This document shows positions 12,338 to 64,000 of a stretch of 64,000 bases of DNA, piece by piece. Numbering within the stretch: position 1 is the first letter of the stretch; each line of letters starts with the position of its first letter. The notes under the pieces were generated by a model. It ran no database searches, was not told the origin of the DNA, and saw only the letters and a program-made list of their open reading frames with translations. The DNA comes from Bryobacterales bacterium (lineage in GTDB: Bacteria; Acidobacteriota; Terriglobia; Bryobacterales; UBA6623). The stretch covers positions 607,022 through 671,021 of the forward strand of contig CBDEGI010000002.1 of the NCBI GenBank assembly GCA_965237575.1. Reading direction: 5' to 3'. Both the position numbers and the translations under genes were made by a program.

Positions 12338-15331
12338 TGATCGGCCAAACCATCTCGCACTACAAGATCACCGAAAAACTCGGTGAAGGCGGGATGGGAG
12401 TCGTCTACAAGGCCCAGGACACCGAGCTCGACCGGCCCGTCGCCCTCAAGTTCCTAGCGCCCCCACCTGCTCCGCGACGAAGAGGGCCGCAAGAGGTTCC
12501 GGCGCGAAGCGAAAGCCGCCGCCGCACTCGACCACCCCAACATCTGCACTGTCTACGAAATCGGCCAGGCCGATGATCAAAACTTCATCGCCATGGCCTT
12601 TCTCGAAGGCCGCACGCTGAGCAAGAAGATCAGCGATGGCCCGCTGAAGCTGCCCGAGGCCCTTTCCATTGCCACCCAGATCGGCGAGGGACTCGAAGCA
12701 GCCCACGAGAAGGGCATCGCCCACCGCGACATCAAGCCCGACAACGTGATGCTGATGAAAGGCTCGCGCGGGCTGCTCAAGATCATGGACTTCGGCCTCG
12801 CGCAACTCGCCGAGAGCTCGAAGCTCACTCGCGAGGGGACAACGCTCGGAACCCCCACCTACATGTCCCCCGAGCAAGCGATGGGGGAACCCACCGATCG
12901 CCGCTCCGATATCTGGGGTCTCGGCGGTGTGCTCTACGAGATGGTTGCCGGTAAGCCACCTTTCAGAGGCGAAGTCGATCAAGCGGTCATCTACTCCATC
13001 GTGAACGAGGAGCCGGAGCCGCTAACGGCGGTGCGCACCGGTGTTCCCAAGGAGCTTGAGCGCATCGTCGACAAGTGCCTGGCGAAGGATGCGGCTGAAC
13101 GCTACCAGCACGCCGAGGACTTGTTGGTCGATCTGCAGCGGCTGCGGCAGGAGTTGGAAACGGGAGCACCCAAGCCGGCGGCACGGCCTACACCTGCCCG
13201 CAGGTTTTCACCCGCCGTGATTGCTGCTGCCGGCGCGGTCTTGCTCGTTGCGGTGGGCCTTACTTGGTGGCTCGCCGGCTCATCGGAAACAGCCGCTCCC
13301 CCTCAATACAAACTGACCCAAATCACACGCGACACCGGCTACACCGCCGATCCGGCTCTGTCTCCGAACGGGCAGCTTCTTGCTTATGCCTCGGATCGTC
13401 AGGGCGACGGCAACCTTGACATCTGGGTGCAGCAACTGACCGGCGGGGGAAATCCGGTCCGCCTAACACAGCACGAAGCCGACGACCACGCGCCGTCATT
13501 CTCGCCCGACGGCAGCCGCATCGTCTTTCTCTCGGACCGCGACAACAGCGGGATTTACGTGACGGGGTATGCACTTGACTCCCGACGACCTCACACCTTG
13601 TGGTCGGCGACTGCGGCGACCGTACCCTCGAGGGGCCATCGGGCAGCGGTCGTGGGTCCTATAGCCGCCGCTCATTGCGCCCCGCGGGGGGACGGCAGCG
13701 GTTGACTTTGAAACCTGAAGGCGAAGCGCTCTTGAAACTCCCCAGCGTGCGCGAATAGTCCTCCAGAGCCCGGATACTAGACCTTGGGGCTTCGGGAGTC
13801 AAGTGCATACCCCAGTTACGTGATTCCGGCGCTTGGCGGAAGTCCGACACGCATTGGACGTGGCTGGCGATGGGCGGCACCCCGTTTCTCTCCAGATGGG
13901 AAGTGGGTCACTTTTTCTCGACCTAGGCAAGATAGCGATTTTCAACAGTTCTCCCATATTGAGATCGTCCCGGCTTCAGGCGGTCCACCGCGGATCGTGG
14001 AGGCAGGCCTGCCAATTGCCGCCGTGCCGATCTGGTCACCCGACGGACAGCATCTGATGTTCATAGGGAGCGAGGAGCCGGGTGGAATTGGCAAGCAGAT
14101 AGACCTCGACTGGTGGCTTGTGCCCGCCGCGGGGGGCGAGCCCGTTCGACTAGGAGCTCGAGAGCTATTCGAAAAACATAGAATCGTACCAGCGGGACCC
14201 ATCGATACCCATCCCAACAGGAGGTTCCCGGCTCCTCGCGCTTGGCTAGCTGACGATAATCGACTGGTCTTCGGCGGGGCGATCGGTGGTGCGGCAGCCA
14301 ATCTGTGGCAGGTTCGAATCTCACCCAGCGACGCCAGACTTGTCGGGGAGCCCCAGCGACTCACCTCGGGAACAGGCGAGGAAGACCCTTCCGCCTCCCA
14401 AGACAGCCTCATCGCGTTCGTCAACCCAGCCCGCGATTGGGATATCTGGAGCCTGCCGCTCGACGCTAATCGCGCCGAGGTCCGCGGAGAACCGGAGAGG
14501 GTCGTCTCAGCACTGAGCGACGAGCTGTACCCATCGATCTCGGATGATGGGCAAAAGCTTGCCTACGCGTCAGACCGCGCCGGTAACCGCGATATCTGGC
14601 TTCATGACCTAGAAACCGGCGAGGACACGCCCATAACGATCGCTCCCGAGAACGAGGGGCGGGGAACGATTTCACCCGACGGTTCGATGATCTCCTTCAT
14701 CCGCCGGGAGCAAGACAAACGCAACCTATACGTCATGGACCTCGTCCAAAGGAGAACGAAGCTGTTGGTCGAGGGCGTCGGCAGCATGTTGGACTGGATG
14801 CCGGGAGGCAAGCGAATCCTGTACTACACGCCTCCACCTCTACGCTGGAAGACCGTGGATGCGGAGACAGCCGAACAAGCCGATGTCGATCTCACGCACC
14901 CCGAGTACCACCCGGAAACGCTTCGATTCTCTCCTGATGGTGAGTGGCTTGCGTTCAATCTTGCGCTCCAACCCGAACGGCCGCTCTTCATTTCCCGTAT
15001 CGAGCAGGGCCAACCAACCGCACACGACGAATGGATTCAGATCACCGAGGGTTCGGCCGCTAGCCACCCTTGGTGGTCGCCCGACGGCAATGTACTCTAT
15101 TTCCGTTCCCGTCGCGACGGGTTCCACTGCGTCTATGCCCAGCCGTTGGAGCCCGCAACCAAAAAGCCGCAAGGGCCCCTGAAGTCGATCCGGCACTTCC
15201 ACGGGCGCATTCGTACTGTCGGTGTCGGCGGGGGAGGCTTCGGCTATGCCATGACCCACGATCGTCTCTATCTGCCGCTCGGCGAACGCAAGGCCAACAT
15301 CTGGCTGGCCGAACCGCAAACCGAGCCGTGA
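12337..15331 (+). pseudogene. Ser/Thr protein kinase with TM segment and TolB-like beta-propeller, disrupted by a homopolymer frameshift and a 253-bp TIR element
   Basis: Pieces are 12337..12576 (frame 1), 12593..13705 and 13784..15331 (frame 2). Kinase motifs: [38 protein letters not shown]. TolB-like repeats follow (SPNG/SPDG…). The C5 run at 12460-12464 shifts the frame; with C4 it reads [34 protein letters not shown]. Removing 13563-13815 plus one TSD restores …DNSGIYVIPALGGSPTRI…. Confidence 0.85.
13563..13815 (+). mobile_element. Non-autonomous TIR element, family A (MITE-like), copy 1, inside the kinase gene
   Basis: Termini are cGGGGTATGCACTTGACTCCCGA … TCGGGAGTCAAGTGCATACCCCag. It is flanked by the direct repeat TTACGTGA (13555-13562 and 13816-13823). 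About 99% identical to 63199..63452. Confidence 0.85.
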
Positions 15332-33475: not shown

Positions 33476-33532
33476 CCTTTGAGTGGCGCCGGGGTTCGTG
33501 CCGGACCGCTCCCTTACGGTCACGGCTCGGTT
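33476..33532 (-). repeat. 57-bp dispersed repeat (copy 2, reverse orientation) overlapping the stop codon of the GH-like gene
   Basis: The reverse complement reads aaccgagccgtgaccgtaagggagcggtccggcacgaaccccggcgccactcaaagg. Confidence 0.8.
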
Positions 33533-33871
33533 GATTCCGTGGATAGCTCGGCGACGCCGATGTGTGCGTAAACGCCGGCCGAGTCGGTTCGAGTGCGGCC
33601 CTGGTTGTCGGTGTACTCGTTCTGCCAATCGCGCGCCGAGTAATACATCAAGTAGCGGTCTTCGAGACTGACGACCGAGGGTGTCGAGGTGTAGCGGCCG
33701 TCGAACAGATCTCTGCCTCCTTCAAGACCATGGGCGGCAGGGAAGGCCTCGCGGCTGTGGTCGGTGTCCCAGTGGGTGCCGTCGCGCGAGGTCGCGCAGA
33801 AGATCTCGAACGTCCCTCCGTCGAGGTGGCAGCCGTACCACATGTAGTACGTGTCGTTCTCTTTGAGGACA

Positions 33872-34146
33872 AGTGGGGTATCCATTTGACTCAGGTGACC
33901 ACAACATACTGTGGTTGGCCATTGGCGGCCCCCGGAAAGGCTTGCCGATAGCACCACGTTTCCAAGCCTGCGATGGCCATGGCGCGTGCGTAATCCTTGA
34001 TCGGCCCGAAACGCAGCCTCGTGGCCCAATTGCCTGCAGACCGGCGTCTGGCGCCCCAGGGTGCATTCTGGGTGCAGTGTGCTGGCGTCCATGGATCGAC
34101 CAAACCACAACGCCTAGGGGCTACCTGAGTCAAGTGGATACCCCAT
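33872..34146 (-). mobile_element. Non-autonomous TIR element, family B (MITE-like), copy 1, inside the GH-like gene
   Basis: agtGGGGTATCCATTTGACTCAGGT … ACCTGAGTCAAGTGGATACCCCat. The 9-bp direct repeat TTGAGGACA lies at 33863-33871 and 34147-34155. By eye it is identical, as a reverse complement, to 63462..63736. Confidence 0.85.
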
Positions 34147-34975
34147 TTGAGGACAAATGGATAGACGGTCGAGTTCGCCCTGCCCGTGGGCTGCAAGACC
34201 GGCTGATCGGAGCGTTCCCATTGGACGCCGTCGGTTGAGGTGAACTCGTAGATGTTTCGATAGAGATCGCCGGGGGGATGTTGGCGACTCGGCCGCGATC
34301 CCATCCACATGCGATAGCGTCCGGGGCCTTCTTTAATGACTGACGGCGAACGGCCTGATTCGTAGATTGGCTCGGGGTGAATCCGCCACCGGATTCCGTC
34401 GCTGCTGGTGGCGTAGCCGAGCGCCTGTGTCATCTCGGTCATCTGTCCCGCCTCATCGCGCTCAATCTCCGTCACCGACACGAACCACATCTTGTAGATG
34501 TGCTCGTCGTCGTCGAACAGCACAAAAGGTGTTTGAAAGTTCGAGCCCCAAGGTAGGTCGTCGCCCGTGAGGATCGGATTACCGTCATACTCTCGCCACT
34601 CGATGCCGTCGTCGGACTCGGCGTACCCGAGGGCGATGTCCGAAGAGCGGGAGCCGGTCGAGGTGCCCAGGTACCACATCTTGAACTTGCCGTCCCGGCG
34701 GAGGACGTGAGGCGTATAGAGGACAACCTTTGACCAAGCTTGCTGGGTCGTGCCGGCTGAGAGAATCGGCTCGGGCCTTCTCTCCCACGGTTGTGGACGT
34801 TGGTCGAGCGGATGGGGTCTTGCGCTGGTCTGATCGGTTGACGCAGTTGGAGCGTCGGGTGATTCCGAGCAGCCCAGGCCCGCGAGGAGCAAACACAGGG
34901 CGACCCACAGGAGCTTGTTGCGAGATCGCCGCTTTTCTTCGGGTGAGTCTGATATTGGAGGGTGTTGTGGTACGA

Positions 34976-35000
34976 GGGCACGGCATGCCGTGCCCCTACA
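34976..35000 (+). repeat. REP-like palindrome, copy 4
   Basis: GGGCACGGCATGCCGTGCCCCTACA, lying within the first 20 codons of the only available reading frame of the GH-like gene. Confidence 0.85.
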
Positions 35001-35039
35001 TCTCAAACCCTGAGCACGAGTAAATCGACAAGTCACATT

Positions 35040-37353: not shown

Positions 37354-37521
37354 CCGGCGGTTGCCCAGCCCTCTTCGCCCGGGAGACCAGCCGGCCTAGG
37401 GGAGCAAGTTGCCCAGCCCTGTTGGGGTGAAGCGAAACTTCAACCGCTGCCTCCAAGTCCCGTTCTGGGCGATCGCCCGGGAGACCAGCCGGCCTAGGGG
37501 AGCAAGCCCACTTCTTCTCTA

Positions 37522-37717
37522 CTGGGGTATGCACTTGACTGAGTATCCGGGCTCTGGAGGACTATTCGCTCTGGGGAGTTTCAAGAGCGCTTCGCCTTCA
37601 GGTTTCAAAGTCAACCGCTGCCGTCCCCCCGCGGGGCGCAATGAGCGGCGGCTATGCCCCTCAGGGTGCGGTCGCCGCAGTCGCCGACCACCGTCGGGAG
37701 TCAAGTGCATACCCCGA
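37522..37717 (-). mobile_element. Family A TIR element, internally deleted copy (196 bp), intergenic
   Basis: ctGGGGTATGCACTTGACT … GGGAGTCAAGTGCATACCCCga, flanked by the 8-bp direct repeat CTTCTCTA (37514-37521 and 37718-37725). It aligns with the reverse complement of the full copies with four internal gaps. Confidence 0.8.
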
Positions 37718-37811
37718 CTTCTCTATTGGACGGGGCGGGCCGCAACGGCCAAATCTTCTGCGGCCGCCTGATCGCTTTCCCCGGCCCTGACTCGCTGTTG
37801 GAAGCGGGCCC

Positions 37812-61480: not shown

Positions 61481-63198
61481 GGTTCGCACCGATCCACAAT
61501 CATACTGGAACCAGCGTGTGCATCGGTCGCACAAATGATTCGAGCTGTCCGGCTCAACTAGCCAAGGGCTACACGCCTCCCATCTGCTGGAACAAGGCGC
61601 CGATCTGCCGACGGTCAGGCGCTGCTCGTCAAGCTCACAGCGATCTACCTGCATCTGTCCGAGCGTCTGGCCGTTATCATTCGTGCGGTCCGCCGGCCAC
61701 AGCGGGTGCGAAATGCTCACGGCCGCTGGACAGCCGAGCGTCGCGCCTCCTCAAGCGGTGAAGCATCGACGTTCTGGGCAACGGAAGCCACTGGTTCTAA
61801 AGGGTTTCGAACCGCTTTACACTTTTGGAGACGAGCCCTTTTATCTTGGTTTGACGCTGAGCCGATCCAATAGTGCCTACTTGAGGTAAAATCAGCTAAC
61901 CTTAATGGTCCTGATCGAACTTCTGCACTCGGAGGGAAACATGAATATCCCAAGTTCTGTCTCACATATACCCTTTATTCGTGCGGGCAGGCTTTGCCGG
62001 TGCCTGGCGCTCTTCGTCGTCGTTCTTTTCCCCTGTCAGACTCGGAGTCAGATTGAAACAGGCAATCTTATGGGGTTAATCGCCGACGGCACCGGGAGCG
62101 CGGTGCCGGATGCCGCACTCACCGTCTCCTCGGCGAGCACGAGCCTACAGCGGACCACCAAGTCTAACGCGTATGGGCGCTATTTCGTGCCCTATCTTAC
62201 TCCGGGGAAATACGAGCTGGGAGTCAGCAAGAACGCGTTCAAGAAAGCCGTCGTGTCTGCTATCACGCTCGAGGTGCACCAAACCGCCCGAGTCGACGTC
62301 AGTTTGGAGGTCGGAGACATCGAAACGACAATCACGGTCGAGGCGCCGGCTGCCGCAACGCTGCAAAGCGATAACACGACTGTGGGAGGAGACATCGAGC
62401 AACGTGCTCTCGAGGAGCTGCCGGGACGTGACGTTTTTACCTCCCTCAGTCTGTCGACTAACGTGGCCAACCTCAGGATGCATGGTTTCAATGGCAACGT
62501 GCTGAGCGGTCTCCAGCCCGGCAGTAATCGATTCCTCTCGGCGAACATGAATTTTGGCGGGCAGCGCCAGACGGCGAATTACTACTGGCTGGACGGACTT
62601 TCCAACACCAACTGGAACATCAACTCCATGACGAACACCCCGTCTGTTGAGTCGCTCCAAGAGGCCCGGGTTCAGGTCAGCACTAGCTCGCAACAATTCG
62701 GCCAGGCACCGGGAGGAATCATAAACGTAGTGACGCGAGCCGGAACGAACGACTTCCACGGCGAAGTCTACAATTACCTGCGCAACGACGCTCTCGATGC
62801 CCAGCCCTATAACTTCAGTTCGGAGGTCCAGCCGAAAGCCCCACTGCACCATAACCAGTTCGGCGCAAGCTTCGGCGGACAGCTGATAAGCGACAAGGTC
62901 TTCTTCTTCGCCCACTATGAAGGCTTGGAGGCGCGCAGCCGGCAGGAAGGTAGCGCTTCGCCCCCCACCCACCGCGCTCGCGAAGGCGACCTGACGGATT
63001 ACGGCCGGACCATCTACGATCCGCTCAGTACGAGCGGCGGTTTCCGAACGCCATTCCCGAACAACACGATTCCAAGGAATCGATTCAGCCCGGTCGCGAA
63101 CAAGTATCTTGAGTTCACGCCGCTCCCCAACGTGCCCGGTGAGATTCAGCGGAACTTCCTCGGGCAGCGGCCCTCGAGAACGCACAACAATCAGGGCA

Positions 63199-63452
63199 TC
63201 GGGGTATGCACTTGACTCCCGACGACCCCACACCTTGTGGTCGGCGACTGCGGCGACCGTACCCTCGAGGGGCCATCGGGCAGCGGTCGTGGGTCCTATA
63301 GCCGCCGCTCATTGCGCCCCGCGGGGGGACGGCAGCGGTTGACTTTGAAACCTGAAGGCGAAGCGCTCTTGAAACTCCCCAGCGTGCGCGAATAGTCCTC
63401 CAGAGCCCGGATACTAGACCTTGGGGCTTCGGGAGTCAAGTGCATACCCCAG
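63199..63452 (+). mobile_element. Family A TIR element, copy 3 (254 bp), inside the TonB-dependent receptor gene
   Basis: tcGGGGTATGCACTTGACTCCCGA…TCGGGAGTCAAGTGCATACCCCag, flanked by TCAGGGCA (63191-63198 and 63453-63460). Confidence 0.85.
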
Positions 63453-63461
63453 TCAGGGCAA

Positions 63462-63736
63462 ATGGGGTATCCACTTGACTCAGGTAGCCCCTAGGCGTTG
63501 TGGTTTGGTCGATCCATGGACGCCAGCACACTGCACCCAGAATGCACCCTGGGGCGCCAGACGCCGGTCTGCAGGCAATTGGGCCACGAGGCTGCGTTTC
63601 GGGCCGATCAAGGATTACGCACGCGCCATGGCCATCGCAGGCTTGGAAACGTGGTGCTATCGGCAAGCCTTTCCGGGGGCCGCCAATGGCCAACCACAGT
63701 ATGTTGTGGTCACCTGAGTCAAATGGATACCCCACT
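63462..63736 (+). mobile_element. Family B TIR element, copy 2 (275 bp), immediately adjacent to the family A copy
   Basis: atGGGGTATCCACTTGACTCAGGT…ACCTGAGTCAAATGGATACCCCact, flanked by TCAGGGCAA (63453-63461 and 63737-63745). Confidence 0.85.
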
Positions 63737-64000
63737 TCAGGGCAATCTACGCATCGACACTCAACTCGCGCCGACGGACTGGCTGAGCGGCGCTTTCCAT
63801 GTCAACGAGCAAAAGCAGAACGTGGAAGATGTCTACAACGGTATCACCGGAACTTCCACGCGCACGCGGGCTTGGAATGCGACCCTCAACGAAACGCACG
63901 TCTTCAGCCCGTCGCTGATCAACAACTTCAAGATCGGATACAACCGGCTCGTGGCCGTTGACGGCGTCTATAGCGAGTTTCGGCGAGACATCATCGGGGA

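Follow-up and report, generated by a model that had tools for sequence, protein, structure and literature searches.

An outer-membrane receptor gene is interrupted by two short transposable elements, A and B, which adjoin each other and have one copy of a target duplication in common, the arrangement expected if both entered at the same staggered cut. They lie within a 64,000-nt stretch of DNA (the window) from a genome of 62% G+C. Judged by their ends, A and B are MITEs (miniature transposable elements with inverted repeats) from two related insertion sequences (ISs) of the IS1595 family. The explanation we prefer, while giving it a little less than an even chance, is that two separate transpositions placed A and B at this cut, both guided by a degenerate motif whose sites are rare in a G+C-rich genome. 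A more tentative explanation is that the end of the resident element was itself captured as the target of the incoming one.

Structure of the A-B tandem

Read directly from the sequence, the order of the tandem is TCAGGGCA, A (254 bp), TCAGGGCAA, B (275 bp) and TCAGGGCAA, with AACAA before the first target copy and TCTACG after the last. A repeat search recovered TCAGGGCA three times without a mismatch, at intervals of 262 and 284 nt and without assigned strand. Copy 1 (TCAGGGCA, 63191-63198) lies to the left of A, copy 2 (TCAGGGCAA, 63453-63461) is common to A (as 8 bp) and B (as 8 or 9 bp), and copy 3 (TCAGGGCAA, 63737-63745) lies to the right of B. This three-copy arrangement bears out the first-pass annotation, which held that the second element cut the same nucleotides that the first had duplicated. 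The length of B's duplication is ambiguous, being 9 bp if B is read as AT...ACT and 8 bp if it is read as AAT...ACT.

The termini of A are TCGGGGTATGC on the left and GCATACCCCAG on the right, and its left terminal inverted repeat (63201-63228) pairs with 63423-63450 over 28 nt at 93% complementarity. B runs from ATGGGGTATCC to GGATACCCCACT, and its left terminal inverted repeat (63460-63505) pairs with 63692-63737 over 46 nt at 76%; both pairings come from the repeat search. A folds on its own inverted repeats (z = -5.3), and B is predicted to fold as well (z = -4.4). In addition, A's right end, the spacer and B's left end make up a 33-bp interrupted palindrome, which could form a hairpin of -26.1 kcal/mol (z = -6.8) with duplication copy 2 as its loop. 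Rfam has no RNA family within 62900-64000.

The tandem is real and no assembly artefact: an independent 58-nt short-read contig from sequencing run X4 (depth 18.8) matches the A-B junction at 63427-63484 without a mismatch.

The interrupted receptor gene

The host gene (61905-64000, plus strand) continues past the end of the window and was delimited from the list of open reading frames (ORFs), from restoration of the frame and from Pfam. Deleting 63199-63744 (546 nt) brings the two halves back into frame and gives SRTHNNQGNLRIDTQLAPTDW, as had been claimed for the removal of both elements. In Pfam, the restored fragment carries CarboxypepD_reg and OMP_b-brl_4 domains (PF13620 and PF25183), and its full-length relatives, as well as the homologues P0121 and P0126, additionally have PF00593; this domain evidence places the gene among the TonB-dependent-type outer-membrane beta-barrels. 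The uninterrupted form among relatives is 1059 aa long, and the gene is also found as pieces of 381, 436, 696, 755 and 810 aa. Annotation is affected too, since a gene split by elements of the A and B type ends up as several pieces, each called as a protein of its own. Exact-protein look-ups gave no match for two ORFs of the window or for fragment P0132.

Origin and abundance of A and B

Element A (63199-63452, minus strand) derives by internal deletion from an IS of the IS1595 family, namely of the L027/L019/L024 type. In BLAST comparisons against the collected loci, its positions 1-47 and 163-252 match both ends of 1024-bp elements, and its ends are 86-97% identical to those of elements of 1.02-1.03 kb. 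The right end of A corresponds to the transposase-upstream end of the parent IS, and A is therefore reversed at the focal site. Element B (63462-63736, no strand assigned) has ends 89-93% identical, in the same comparisons, to those of IS1595-family elements of 1023-1029 bp (L081/L020/L048 type); its orientation relative to the parent comes out in conflicting ways from L020 and L081.

The likeness to the IS1595 family extends to the general plan of the parents, which are about 1.02-1.04 kb long with a single transposase gene. The L027 ORF encodes an IS1595-family transposase that has a Zn ribbon (PF12760) at its N-terminus besides a DDE_Tnp_IS1595 domain (PF12762, NF033547), and the L081 ORF is by sequence of the same type. 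Parent termini start with GG and duplications are 8 bp long, in line with the account of the IS1595 family and its eukaryotic relatives, Merlin (8-9 bp), by Siguier, Gagnevin and Chandler (2009), as outlined in PMC8101967, where 8-bp duplications are the usual ones. The duplication is 8 bp at four of four sites of A, the copy on long-read contig L098 included, 8 or 9 bp for B, and 8 bp in most of 53 related elements. The difference lies in A and B themselves, which at 254 and 275 bp have no transposase gene (A is too short to hold one) and number in the hundreds within a single Bryobacterales-like lineage; their interiors differ from each other throughout. Ends shared with a transposase-encoding IS, a duplication of family length, small size, many copies and mobility together mark both as MITEs. 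The same samples are rich in full-length relatives. We propose that IS1595-family transposases move A and B in trans.

A shared terminal motif, GGGGTATSCAYTTGACTC, is found 10 times across the window, at five elements, against 0.07 occurrences expected. A second copy of A (13563-13815, plus strand; duplication TTACGTGA) lies within a kinase-like ORF that is 870 codons long from stop to stop. A second B (33873-34146, minus strand), identical to the focal one and with its duplication within TTTGAGGACAA, is present in run X4; in X1, X8 and X16 its site is precisely empty. The fifth element, a short deletion variant of A (196 bp; 37522-37717, minus strand; duplication CTTCTCTA), is missing from X4, X8 and X16, and empty sites exist. 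Among themselves, the window's copies of A or of B show 0-2 base differences. In several runs the interiors of A and B reach 130-350 times the depth of unique flanks, and these depth ratios put the combined number of A and B in the lineage at roughly 500. When a genome collection was searched with the terminal motif, at least 93 loci were found, the window's own genome not being among the matches listed.

Short, non-coding elements that are bounded by inverted repeats, flanked by duplications, multi-copy, trans-mobilised, strain-polymorphic and able to form hairpins are well known as bacterial MITEs, Correia and MITEAba12 among them. A and B share these features, with mobilisation in trans as a proposal, and differ in their IS1595-family parentage, in a copy number unusually high for a bacterium and in the many insertions that lie inside genes.

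Alleles at the focal site

Three alleles of the focal site occur in public read sets and contigs: empty, A-only and A+B, so that the empty and single-occupancy forms that the first-pass annotation had suggested looking for do exist. A precise empty site is present on contigs L096 and L097 and as joints skipping 546 nt in X4, X7, X8, X11, X12 and X16. X1 and X2 show no allele other than A-only, which is also found in X7 and X8 and is carried by L098 (99.98% identity with the window across 11.4 kb); contig_33 of the long-read assembly ERZ25068887 (ENA) is A-only at that same identity, and gene fragments with A alone appear on several further ENA contigs. Words joining B's right end, the duplication and the flank are restricted to X4 among all indexed runs. 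That run holds the empty and A+B alleles and lacks A-only, and the depths of the tandem (18.8) and the empty site (27.6) together sum to that of the flank (44-58). No B-only allele was seen in the nine surveyed runs or among the listed protein-cluster members. Since A-only is widespread and B-only was never seen, A most likely inserted before B.

Other tandems

Besides the focal tandem, about 12 others have spacers of 8-9 nt. Run X4 alone has seven junctions of B-right to B-left and three of an A end to B-left; nine of these 10 spacers measure 8-9 nt, and the tenth 9 or 10 depending on how the B terminus is delimited. The two other A-B tandems of X4 have the spacers ATCGATCAA and TCGCACGA. Departures from this length are limited to a few junctions whose spacers measure 7 or 10-11 nt and to one where nothing but ATT separates the cores. 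Certain tandems are retained across strains that are 2-4% apart, and three of the B-B tandems recur in X16, whose strain apparently has far fewer copies.

The geometry of these junctions is skewed. B's left end is present at every one of them, A may face it in either orientation, and the B-B tandems are all head-to-tail, though head-to-head forms may be unstable or unreported by the read tool. No A-A tandem was found, though A is the commoner family; in X4 no junction of B-right to A-left, or to any A end, was seen. Given this skew, the two families do not behave equally, and the earlier suggestion of a target choice common to both is to that extent not supported. Elsewhere, in JGI metagenome contigs, a pattern of right end, 0 to 30 nt and left end yielded no more than two junctions (their cores separated by 12 and 15 nt), few because short-read contigs break at repeats of this type; the same pattern gave none in viral contigs, and no tandem occurs among the 53 complete elements in other genome loci.

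A degenerate target motif

The flanks of 158 element ends yield the degenerate motif WW/TW-N4-WA/WW, where slashes mark the borders of the duplication. The first duplicated base is T in 66%, the two bases just outside are A/T in 95% and 93%, and A-type and B-type ends are alike in this respect; the A copy in L098, at AA/TGACTTCG/TT, conforms. The motif carries about 7 bits of information. In a limited literature search we found neither a published WW/T...A/WW motif nor anything specific on target preference or duplication-sharing MITE tandems in the IS1595 family, and as far as is known this is the first quantitative target motif for this IS group.

Scored with this motif, the empty focal site AA/TCAGGGCA/AT has 39 times the genome mean and falls in the 99.6th percentile. 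With E[w^2]/E[w]^2 = 788, duplication-sharing tandems would number about 4-13 per genome, against 0.02 under a uniform, untargeted null, figures for which the inputs are rough (a weight matrix from related elements in many genomes, a depth-based copy number and an assumed genome size of 7 Mb). About 10 tandems were seen in one sample, so the class total fits; the share of B-left ends that take part in a tandem is about 4%, the prediction being 1.5-5%. By end, the model gives 3.3-11.7 tandems per genome at B-left, 1.0 at B-right, 0.16 at A-left and 0.06 at A-right. The skew would follow from terminal bases, as tandems pile up at B-left because that end reads AAT or AT.

Directed target choice is thereby supported, and the coincidence would indeed be very unlikely for untargeted insertion, as the first-pass annotation had argued. 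Its stronger wording is not needed for tandems as a class, given that about 7 bits and some 500 copies already predict 4-13 of them, and one of its examples, recognition of the specific 8-9-mer, is not supported, the spacers and duplications being diverse and the preference a degenerate motif.

Order and mechanism of insertion

Under our preferred explanation, A and B, mobilised in trans, would insert preferentially at duplications of 8-9 bp that begin with T (often TW), end in A (often WA) and have A/T at two bases on each side. With about 500 copies and few good sites in a genome of 62% G+C, repeated hits on one site would be expected, and a duplicated copy of a good site would stay attractive wherever the resident's outermost bases are A/T. 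Such tandems would then be a recurrent by-product of a very large burst of transposition. The identities of the elements, the motif, their copy number, the recurrent tandems with their geometry and the three alleles are shown; that nothing but the motif selected the focal site for the second insertion is what we infer, and it is precisely here that the motif model fits worst. The allele survey points to A first, and that order puts a G just outside the duplication, where 93-95% of sites have A/T: B beside A's end, CCCCAG/TCAGGGCA, has a site weight only 0.43 times the genome mean, and 0.02-0.06 events of this geometry are expected per genome. If the motif acted alone, the focal tandem would be either a rare event of B landing beside A's ...CCCCAG end or the product of B inserting first, with precise loss of B in the A-only strains. 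The seven B-B tandems, all head-to-tail, also exceed the roughly two expected.

Insertion directed by the resident end would account for what the motif does not, and we regard it as a possibility of some weight, though short of probable. Here a transposase bound to A's inverted repeat, or a distortion at A's end, would have captured the incoming B, with one strand transfer at the phosphodiester between A's last base and the duplication and the other 8-9 bp away; A's duplication would then be re-used whatever the flanking sequence. This accommodates the most parsimonious order, A then B, together with a G flank that violates the strongest rule of the motif, and it agrees with spacers that nearly all equal the duplication length, with the palindrome at the junction, and with B-B tandems that exceed expectation and are shared with an apparently low-copy strain. 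The presence of B-left at every junction and the head-to-tail B-B arrangement resemble the IRL-IRR rule of IR-targeting by IS30 (PMC9333248). Against it, A-A tandems are absent in spite of A being the commoner family, the asymmetry in X4 (none of B-right to an A end, three of an A end to B-left) is predicted by the motif model from terminal bases alone, and neither the number nor the placement of tandems needs an extra mechanism. The scarcity of tandems in JGI contigs and their absence from the 53 complete elements of other genome loci point the same way, and nothing comparable is documented for IS1595 in the literature searched. If A came first, recognition of a neighbouring element end, the alternative raised in the first-pass annotation, is the better fit for the focal tandem.

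The reverse order appears improbable. B would have come first, A would have entered B's left duplication (AA/TCAGGGCA/AAT), where the motif is still perfect, and A-only would have arisen later by precise loss of B and one duplication. The motif model favors this order by about 100:1 (site weights of 45.9 and 0.43); in X4 the empty allele and A+B occur together and A-only is missing; and among near-identical strains A at the focal site and the second copy of B (33.9 kb) are present or absent in all four combinations, which implies that precise loss or recombination occurs. However, B is found at this site only in X4 and never without A, whereas A-only is known from at least four studies and several long-read contigs, such that a rare derived allele would have outspread both its ancestors.

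An artefact or an origin other than transposition is very hard to credit: high-copy repeats such as A and B are prone to mis-joining and slippage between duplications could yield head-to-tail B-B tandems, but the junction is spanned by an independent short-read contig, the X4 depths of tandem and empty site together account for that of the flank, duplicating one element cannot give A-B from differing interiors, and a composite arriving as a single unit would bring a foreign inner spacer and not the local target. A-B composite transposition was rejected on this last ground, and a circle junction or IS dimer on the grounds that the two elements are not the same and that A takes either orientation against B-left.

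Comparison with other target choices

The target specificity of IS30 is twofold, the element inserting at hot-spot sequences or beside its own inverted repeats (PMC9333248). The present tandems are similar in that the new element lies beside a resident end, the spacer equals the duplication length and the junctions show some polarity, though A faces B-left in either orientation. IS30 differs in its transposase family, its copy-out-paste-in pathway and a 2-bp spacer, and its joined ends are highly reactive and unstable, whereas some tandems here persist between strains; the transposase in question belongs to the IS1595 family. Any likeness would be one of mechanism, not of membership.

A comparison may also be made with IS1, a distant relative of IS1595 that has duplications of 8-9 bp and prefers A/T-rich targets, with old reports of end-like sequences near its hot spots. 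Duplication length and regional A/T preference are the same in both, while ends and transposase organisation differ.

Implications

A soil acidobacterial, Bryobacterales-like lineage with about 500 copies of two IS1595-derived MITEs amounts to a natural experiment in target choice, in which strains of 99.98% identity still differ in having the empty, the single or the double allele. A modest preference for A/T flanks in a G+C-rich genome suffices to make seemingly "impossible" double hits at one site routine, and same-site coincidences therefore need not signal site-specific recombination. Insertion next to an inverted repeat is known from IS30 and IS911. It is conceivable, if somewhat doubtful, that a B-type IS1595 transposase takes the end of a resident element for its target and uses the duplication there a second time, with a fixed polarity, B-left towards the resident. 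If so, insertion adjacent to inverted repeats would extend to the IS1/IS1595/Merlin lineage, and a new family that targets its own ends would explain the growth of MITE arrays.

The tandem and the gene it interrupts

Two MITEs, A and B, stand back to back in an outer-membrane receptor gene (61905–64000, + strand). Direct reading of the sequence places a first copy of the target duplication (TCAGGGCA, 63191–63198) to the left of the 254-bp element A (63199–63452), a second copy (TCAGGGCAA, 63453–63461) between A and the 275-bp element B (63462–63736), and a third (TCAGGGCAA, 63737–63745) to the right of B, exactly the order given in the first-pass annotation. A repeat search recovered the three 8-mer copies and, in each element, an inverted-repeat pair (A, 28 nt, 93%; B, 46 nt, 76%) on which it is predicted to fold (z = -5.3 and -4.4, respectively). 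No RNA families were matched in an Rfam search of the tandem region (62900–64000).

The annotation also held that excising both elements and two target copies mends the gene, and removal of 546 nt does yield ...SRTHNNQGNLRIDTQLAPTDW..., with CarboxypepD_reg and OMP_b-brl_4 domains in the restored product; the full-length relatives of the receptor (1059 aa) have a TonB-dependent barrel domain as well. The insert (63199–63744; A, B and two extra duplications) equals 182 codons, and thus the original frame resumes past the insert, but stop codons within A and B still break the reading frame. The allele with A only, by adding 262 nt, causes a frameshift. In related strains, the gene (61905–64000 and beyond) is broken at several further places (loci L096 and L097; homologues P0123–P0136), with a full-length IS1595-family IS at TTCACAAG, near codon 755–810 (L097, P0135), a DDE_Tnp_1 IS further along (L096, L097), and a B-like right end immediately ahead of ...LLTNMEL (P0132, first residues MDTPL). 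The gene looks dispensable and accumulates insertions.

Identity and abundance of the elements

The terminal core GGGGTATSCAYTTGACTC occurs at both ends of A and of B, and its 10 occurrences in the window (0.07 expected) mark five elements: the focal pair, a second A (13563–13815), another B with the same sequence as the focal copy (33873–34146), and a 196-bp deletion variant of A (37522–37717). Among the matches listed, elements of 1.02–1.04 kb with the same termini recur in many metagenome-assembled genomes, from Bryobacterales and from other groups. Positions 1–47 and 163–252 of A match both ends of such elements (L027, L019, L024, L077), making A an internal-deletion derivative of the L027 type, and the ends of B match a sister type (L081, L020, L048). 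The L027 ORF contains DDE_Tnp_IS1595 and Zn_ribbon_IS1595 domains (NCBIfam "IS1595 family transposase"), and by sequence comparison the L081 ORF is a transposase of the same kind. IS1595 elements usually have 8-bp flanking duplications and a single transposase gene with an N-terminal zinc finger (PMC8101967). The duplications of A are 8 bp at 4/4 sites seen, and that of B is readable as 8 or 9 bp. Given these duplications and the termini in common with IS1595-transposase elements, A and B are IS1595-family MITEs.

At the density seen in the window, five elements in 64 kb, a 7-Mb genome would carry ~550 copies, both figures being estimates, with genome size assumed from related Bryobacterales chromosomes (6.9–8.6 Mb among the matches listed). 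In public sequencing runs, A/B interiors reach 130–350x the unique-flank depth (X1, X2, X4, X7, X8, X11) and only ~20–30x in X16; since these samples are also very rich in full-length relatives, the ratios may include co-occurring species.

The A at 13563–13815 sits within a long ORF that, without the element, runs 870 codons from stop to stop and resembles a Ser/Thr protein kinase gene. This copy is missing the terminal T present in other A copies, and both it and the focal A have T at the family position equivalent to 63260, which reads C in the high-depth consensus of the family. Seven nt from the short A is a 98-nt extra segment (37409–37506), formed by a 29-nt flank that is repeated (CGGGAGACCAGCCGGCCTAGGGGAGCAAG at 37380 and 37478), the copies lying 69 nt apart; X4, X8 and X16 are without both this segment and the short A, joining 37408 to 37718 with CCCACTT between. 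Other high-copy repeats, neither A nor B (33500–33540 and 34859–35009; contig depth 100–8000x flanks), are probably additional mobile-element families, and X4 and X8 contain a joint that connects 33532 to 34976 through 40 other letters. Locus L067 (840–1080) has the right half of A only (positions 120–254, 100% identical), flanked on both sides by a ~50-bp host direct repeat (TAGGTGCATTCTTGTAGCCCGATTGAAAAG..CCAGCGAAATCGCCCG), which looks like an aberrant insertion or rearrangement at CGCCCGCGGGGGGA.

Alleles and order of insertion

Logan contigs of public runs, which drop rare variants, were aligned to the locus. In X4, a 58-nt contig passes through the right end of A, the spacer and the left end of B with 0 mismatches (depth 18.8), and a second joint omits exactly 546 nt, representing the empty site (depth 27.6); these depths sum to that of the flanks (44–58). 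The tandem is therefore real rather than an assembly artefact, a concern raised in the first-pass annotation, and both empty and single-occupancy alleles exist in related strains. A-only is the sole allele in X1 and X2 (A right end, TCAGGGCAA, TCTACG), and both A-only and empty sites occur in X7 and X8. A-only is also found in L098, which comes from a 786-kb long-read contig and has one mismatch and one gap relative to the window over 11.4 kb, and A-only-type gene fragments (381 aa, ending ...NNQGIGVCT; 696 aa, starting MGLRESSAYPSQGNLRIDT) lie on several more contigs. L098 has an additional A (14437–14691; duplication TGACTTCG, flanks AA and TT) ~3 kb further downstream than the focal site, just past the window end. 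The empty site is the sole allele in X11, X12 and X16, whose strains have 5–9 substitutions per 214 nt of flank, and is present as CACAACAATCAGGGCAATCTACGC in L096 and L097, which share 94% identity with the window.

Words across the right end of B, the duplication and the flank occur in X4 only, among all indexed runs. A B-only allele was seen in none of the surveyed runs and contigs, although Logan's loss of rare variants means that this absence is not proof. With A-only common, B-only unseen and B-right words confined to X4, the parsimonious history is empty, next A, and last A+B. All four possible combinations of presence and absence of focal A and the B at 33873–34146 are found among strains with identical or near-identical flanks (X1, X4, X8, X16); for instance, X4 has that B in all strains yet an empty focal site in part of them, and X1 has focal A without it. 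Such combinations point to recombination between strains, or precise element loss, in the population.

Target motif

Target preference was derived from 158 non-redundant end-flanks read outward from the core, where positions 1–2 are terminal bases of the element, 3–10 the duplication, and 11–13 the flank past it. The first duplicated base is T in 66% and the second W in 77%, the middle of the duplication shows no base preference, and the two bases immediately outside are W in 95% and 93%. A-type and B-type ends have the same pattern, and exceptions are mostly register shifts due to 3-nt termini. These frequencies define the target as WW|TW-N4-WA|WW, at ~3.7 bits per half-site. Weights are very skewed in the 62.5% G+C window (E[w^2]/E[w]^2 = 788), and the focal site, AA|TCAGGGCA|AT, has 39x the mean weight (99.6th percentile) under a matrix that pools related elements from many genomes.

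Other tandems

Spacers were read from contigs running from a right end to a left end. Other tandems, for which the first-pass annotation suggested looking, exist, both B-B and A-B in X4. X4 has seven B-B spacers of 8 or 9 nt, all head-to-tail (TAGGTCTAA, TGTCGTTT, TTCATGAA, TACTCCATA, GAGCGGGA, AAGTGTAAA, TAGTCCAAA), and three hetero-tandems (the focal one, AG|ATCGATCAA|AAT and GA|TCGCACGA|AAT), in which A takes either orientation and the left end of B is always the partner. Further B-B tandems occur in X7, X11, X12 and X16, some of them common to strains 2–4% apart. No A-A junctions were found in X4 and X8, nor B-right-to-A-left junctions in X4; X11 has one odd junction of the latter kind. 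A JGI metagenome scan gave two junctions only, with 12 and 15 nt between cores. In L077 (1967 to 2241), a B-type end is joined to an A-type end by ATT alone between CCCC and GGGG cores, with no duplication-length spacer and at single-copy depth (X4, 42.9; X1, 7.0).

Origin of the tandems

Untargeted insertion, as the first-pass annotation argued, is unable to explain the tandem, with a uniform null of 0.02 per genome at any site. After insertion, each duplication copy keeps one original flank and gains the resident's terminal bases as the other, and the A/T terminus of B would regenerate the target motif beside a resident B. A model counting later insertions into a duplication copy (fitted weights, N = 550, G = 7 Mb) gives expected tandems per genome of 3.3–11.7 at a resident B-left end (AT/AAT), 1.0 at B-right (ACT), 0.16 at A-left (TC), and 0.06 at A-right (AG), or 0.024 for the last with B as newcomer. 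From independent data, it predicts how many tandems there are, their clustering at B-left and the absence of A-A, and ~4% of B-left ends are occupied versus 1.5–5% predicted.

The same model misfits the focal event on an A-first history, in which B would have entered CCCCAG|TCAGGGCA, at 0.43x the mean weight and with G at a flank position nearly always occupied by A/T elsewhere. B-B tandems are also in excess and strictly head-to-tail, and they occur in X16 despite its seemingly low copy number. Head-to-head B-B pairs would be long palindromes that may have been lost, or may escape the contig-junction readout.

The main rival, which we hold possible if doubtful, is that the end of resident A was itself the target, by analogy with IS30, which inserts adjacent to its inverted repeats (PMC9333248). 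The transposase would recognise a phosphodiester at A's end for one-strand attack, with the second attack 8–9 bp off. This would account for A preceding B, for the exact spacing and for the polarity, but alone it leaves unexplained the missing A-A tandems and the zero B-right/A-end contacts in X4. Under motif-driven insertion, the focal tandem would require a 2–6% event, or else B inserting first and its later loss giving A-only, a history that seems improbable. For the duplication-sharing tandems as a class, we tentatively favor, as the best explanation, that good sites are used repeatedly through the motif preference in a copy-saturated genome.
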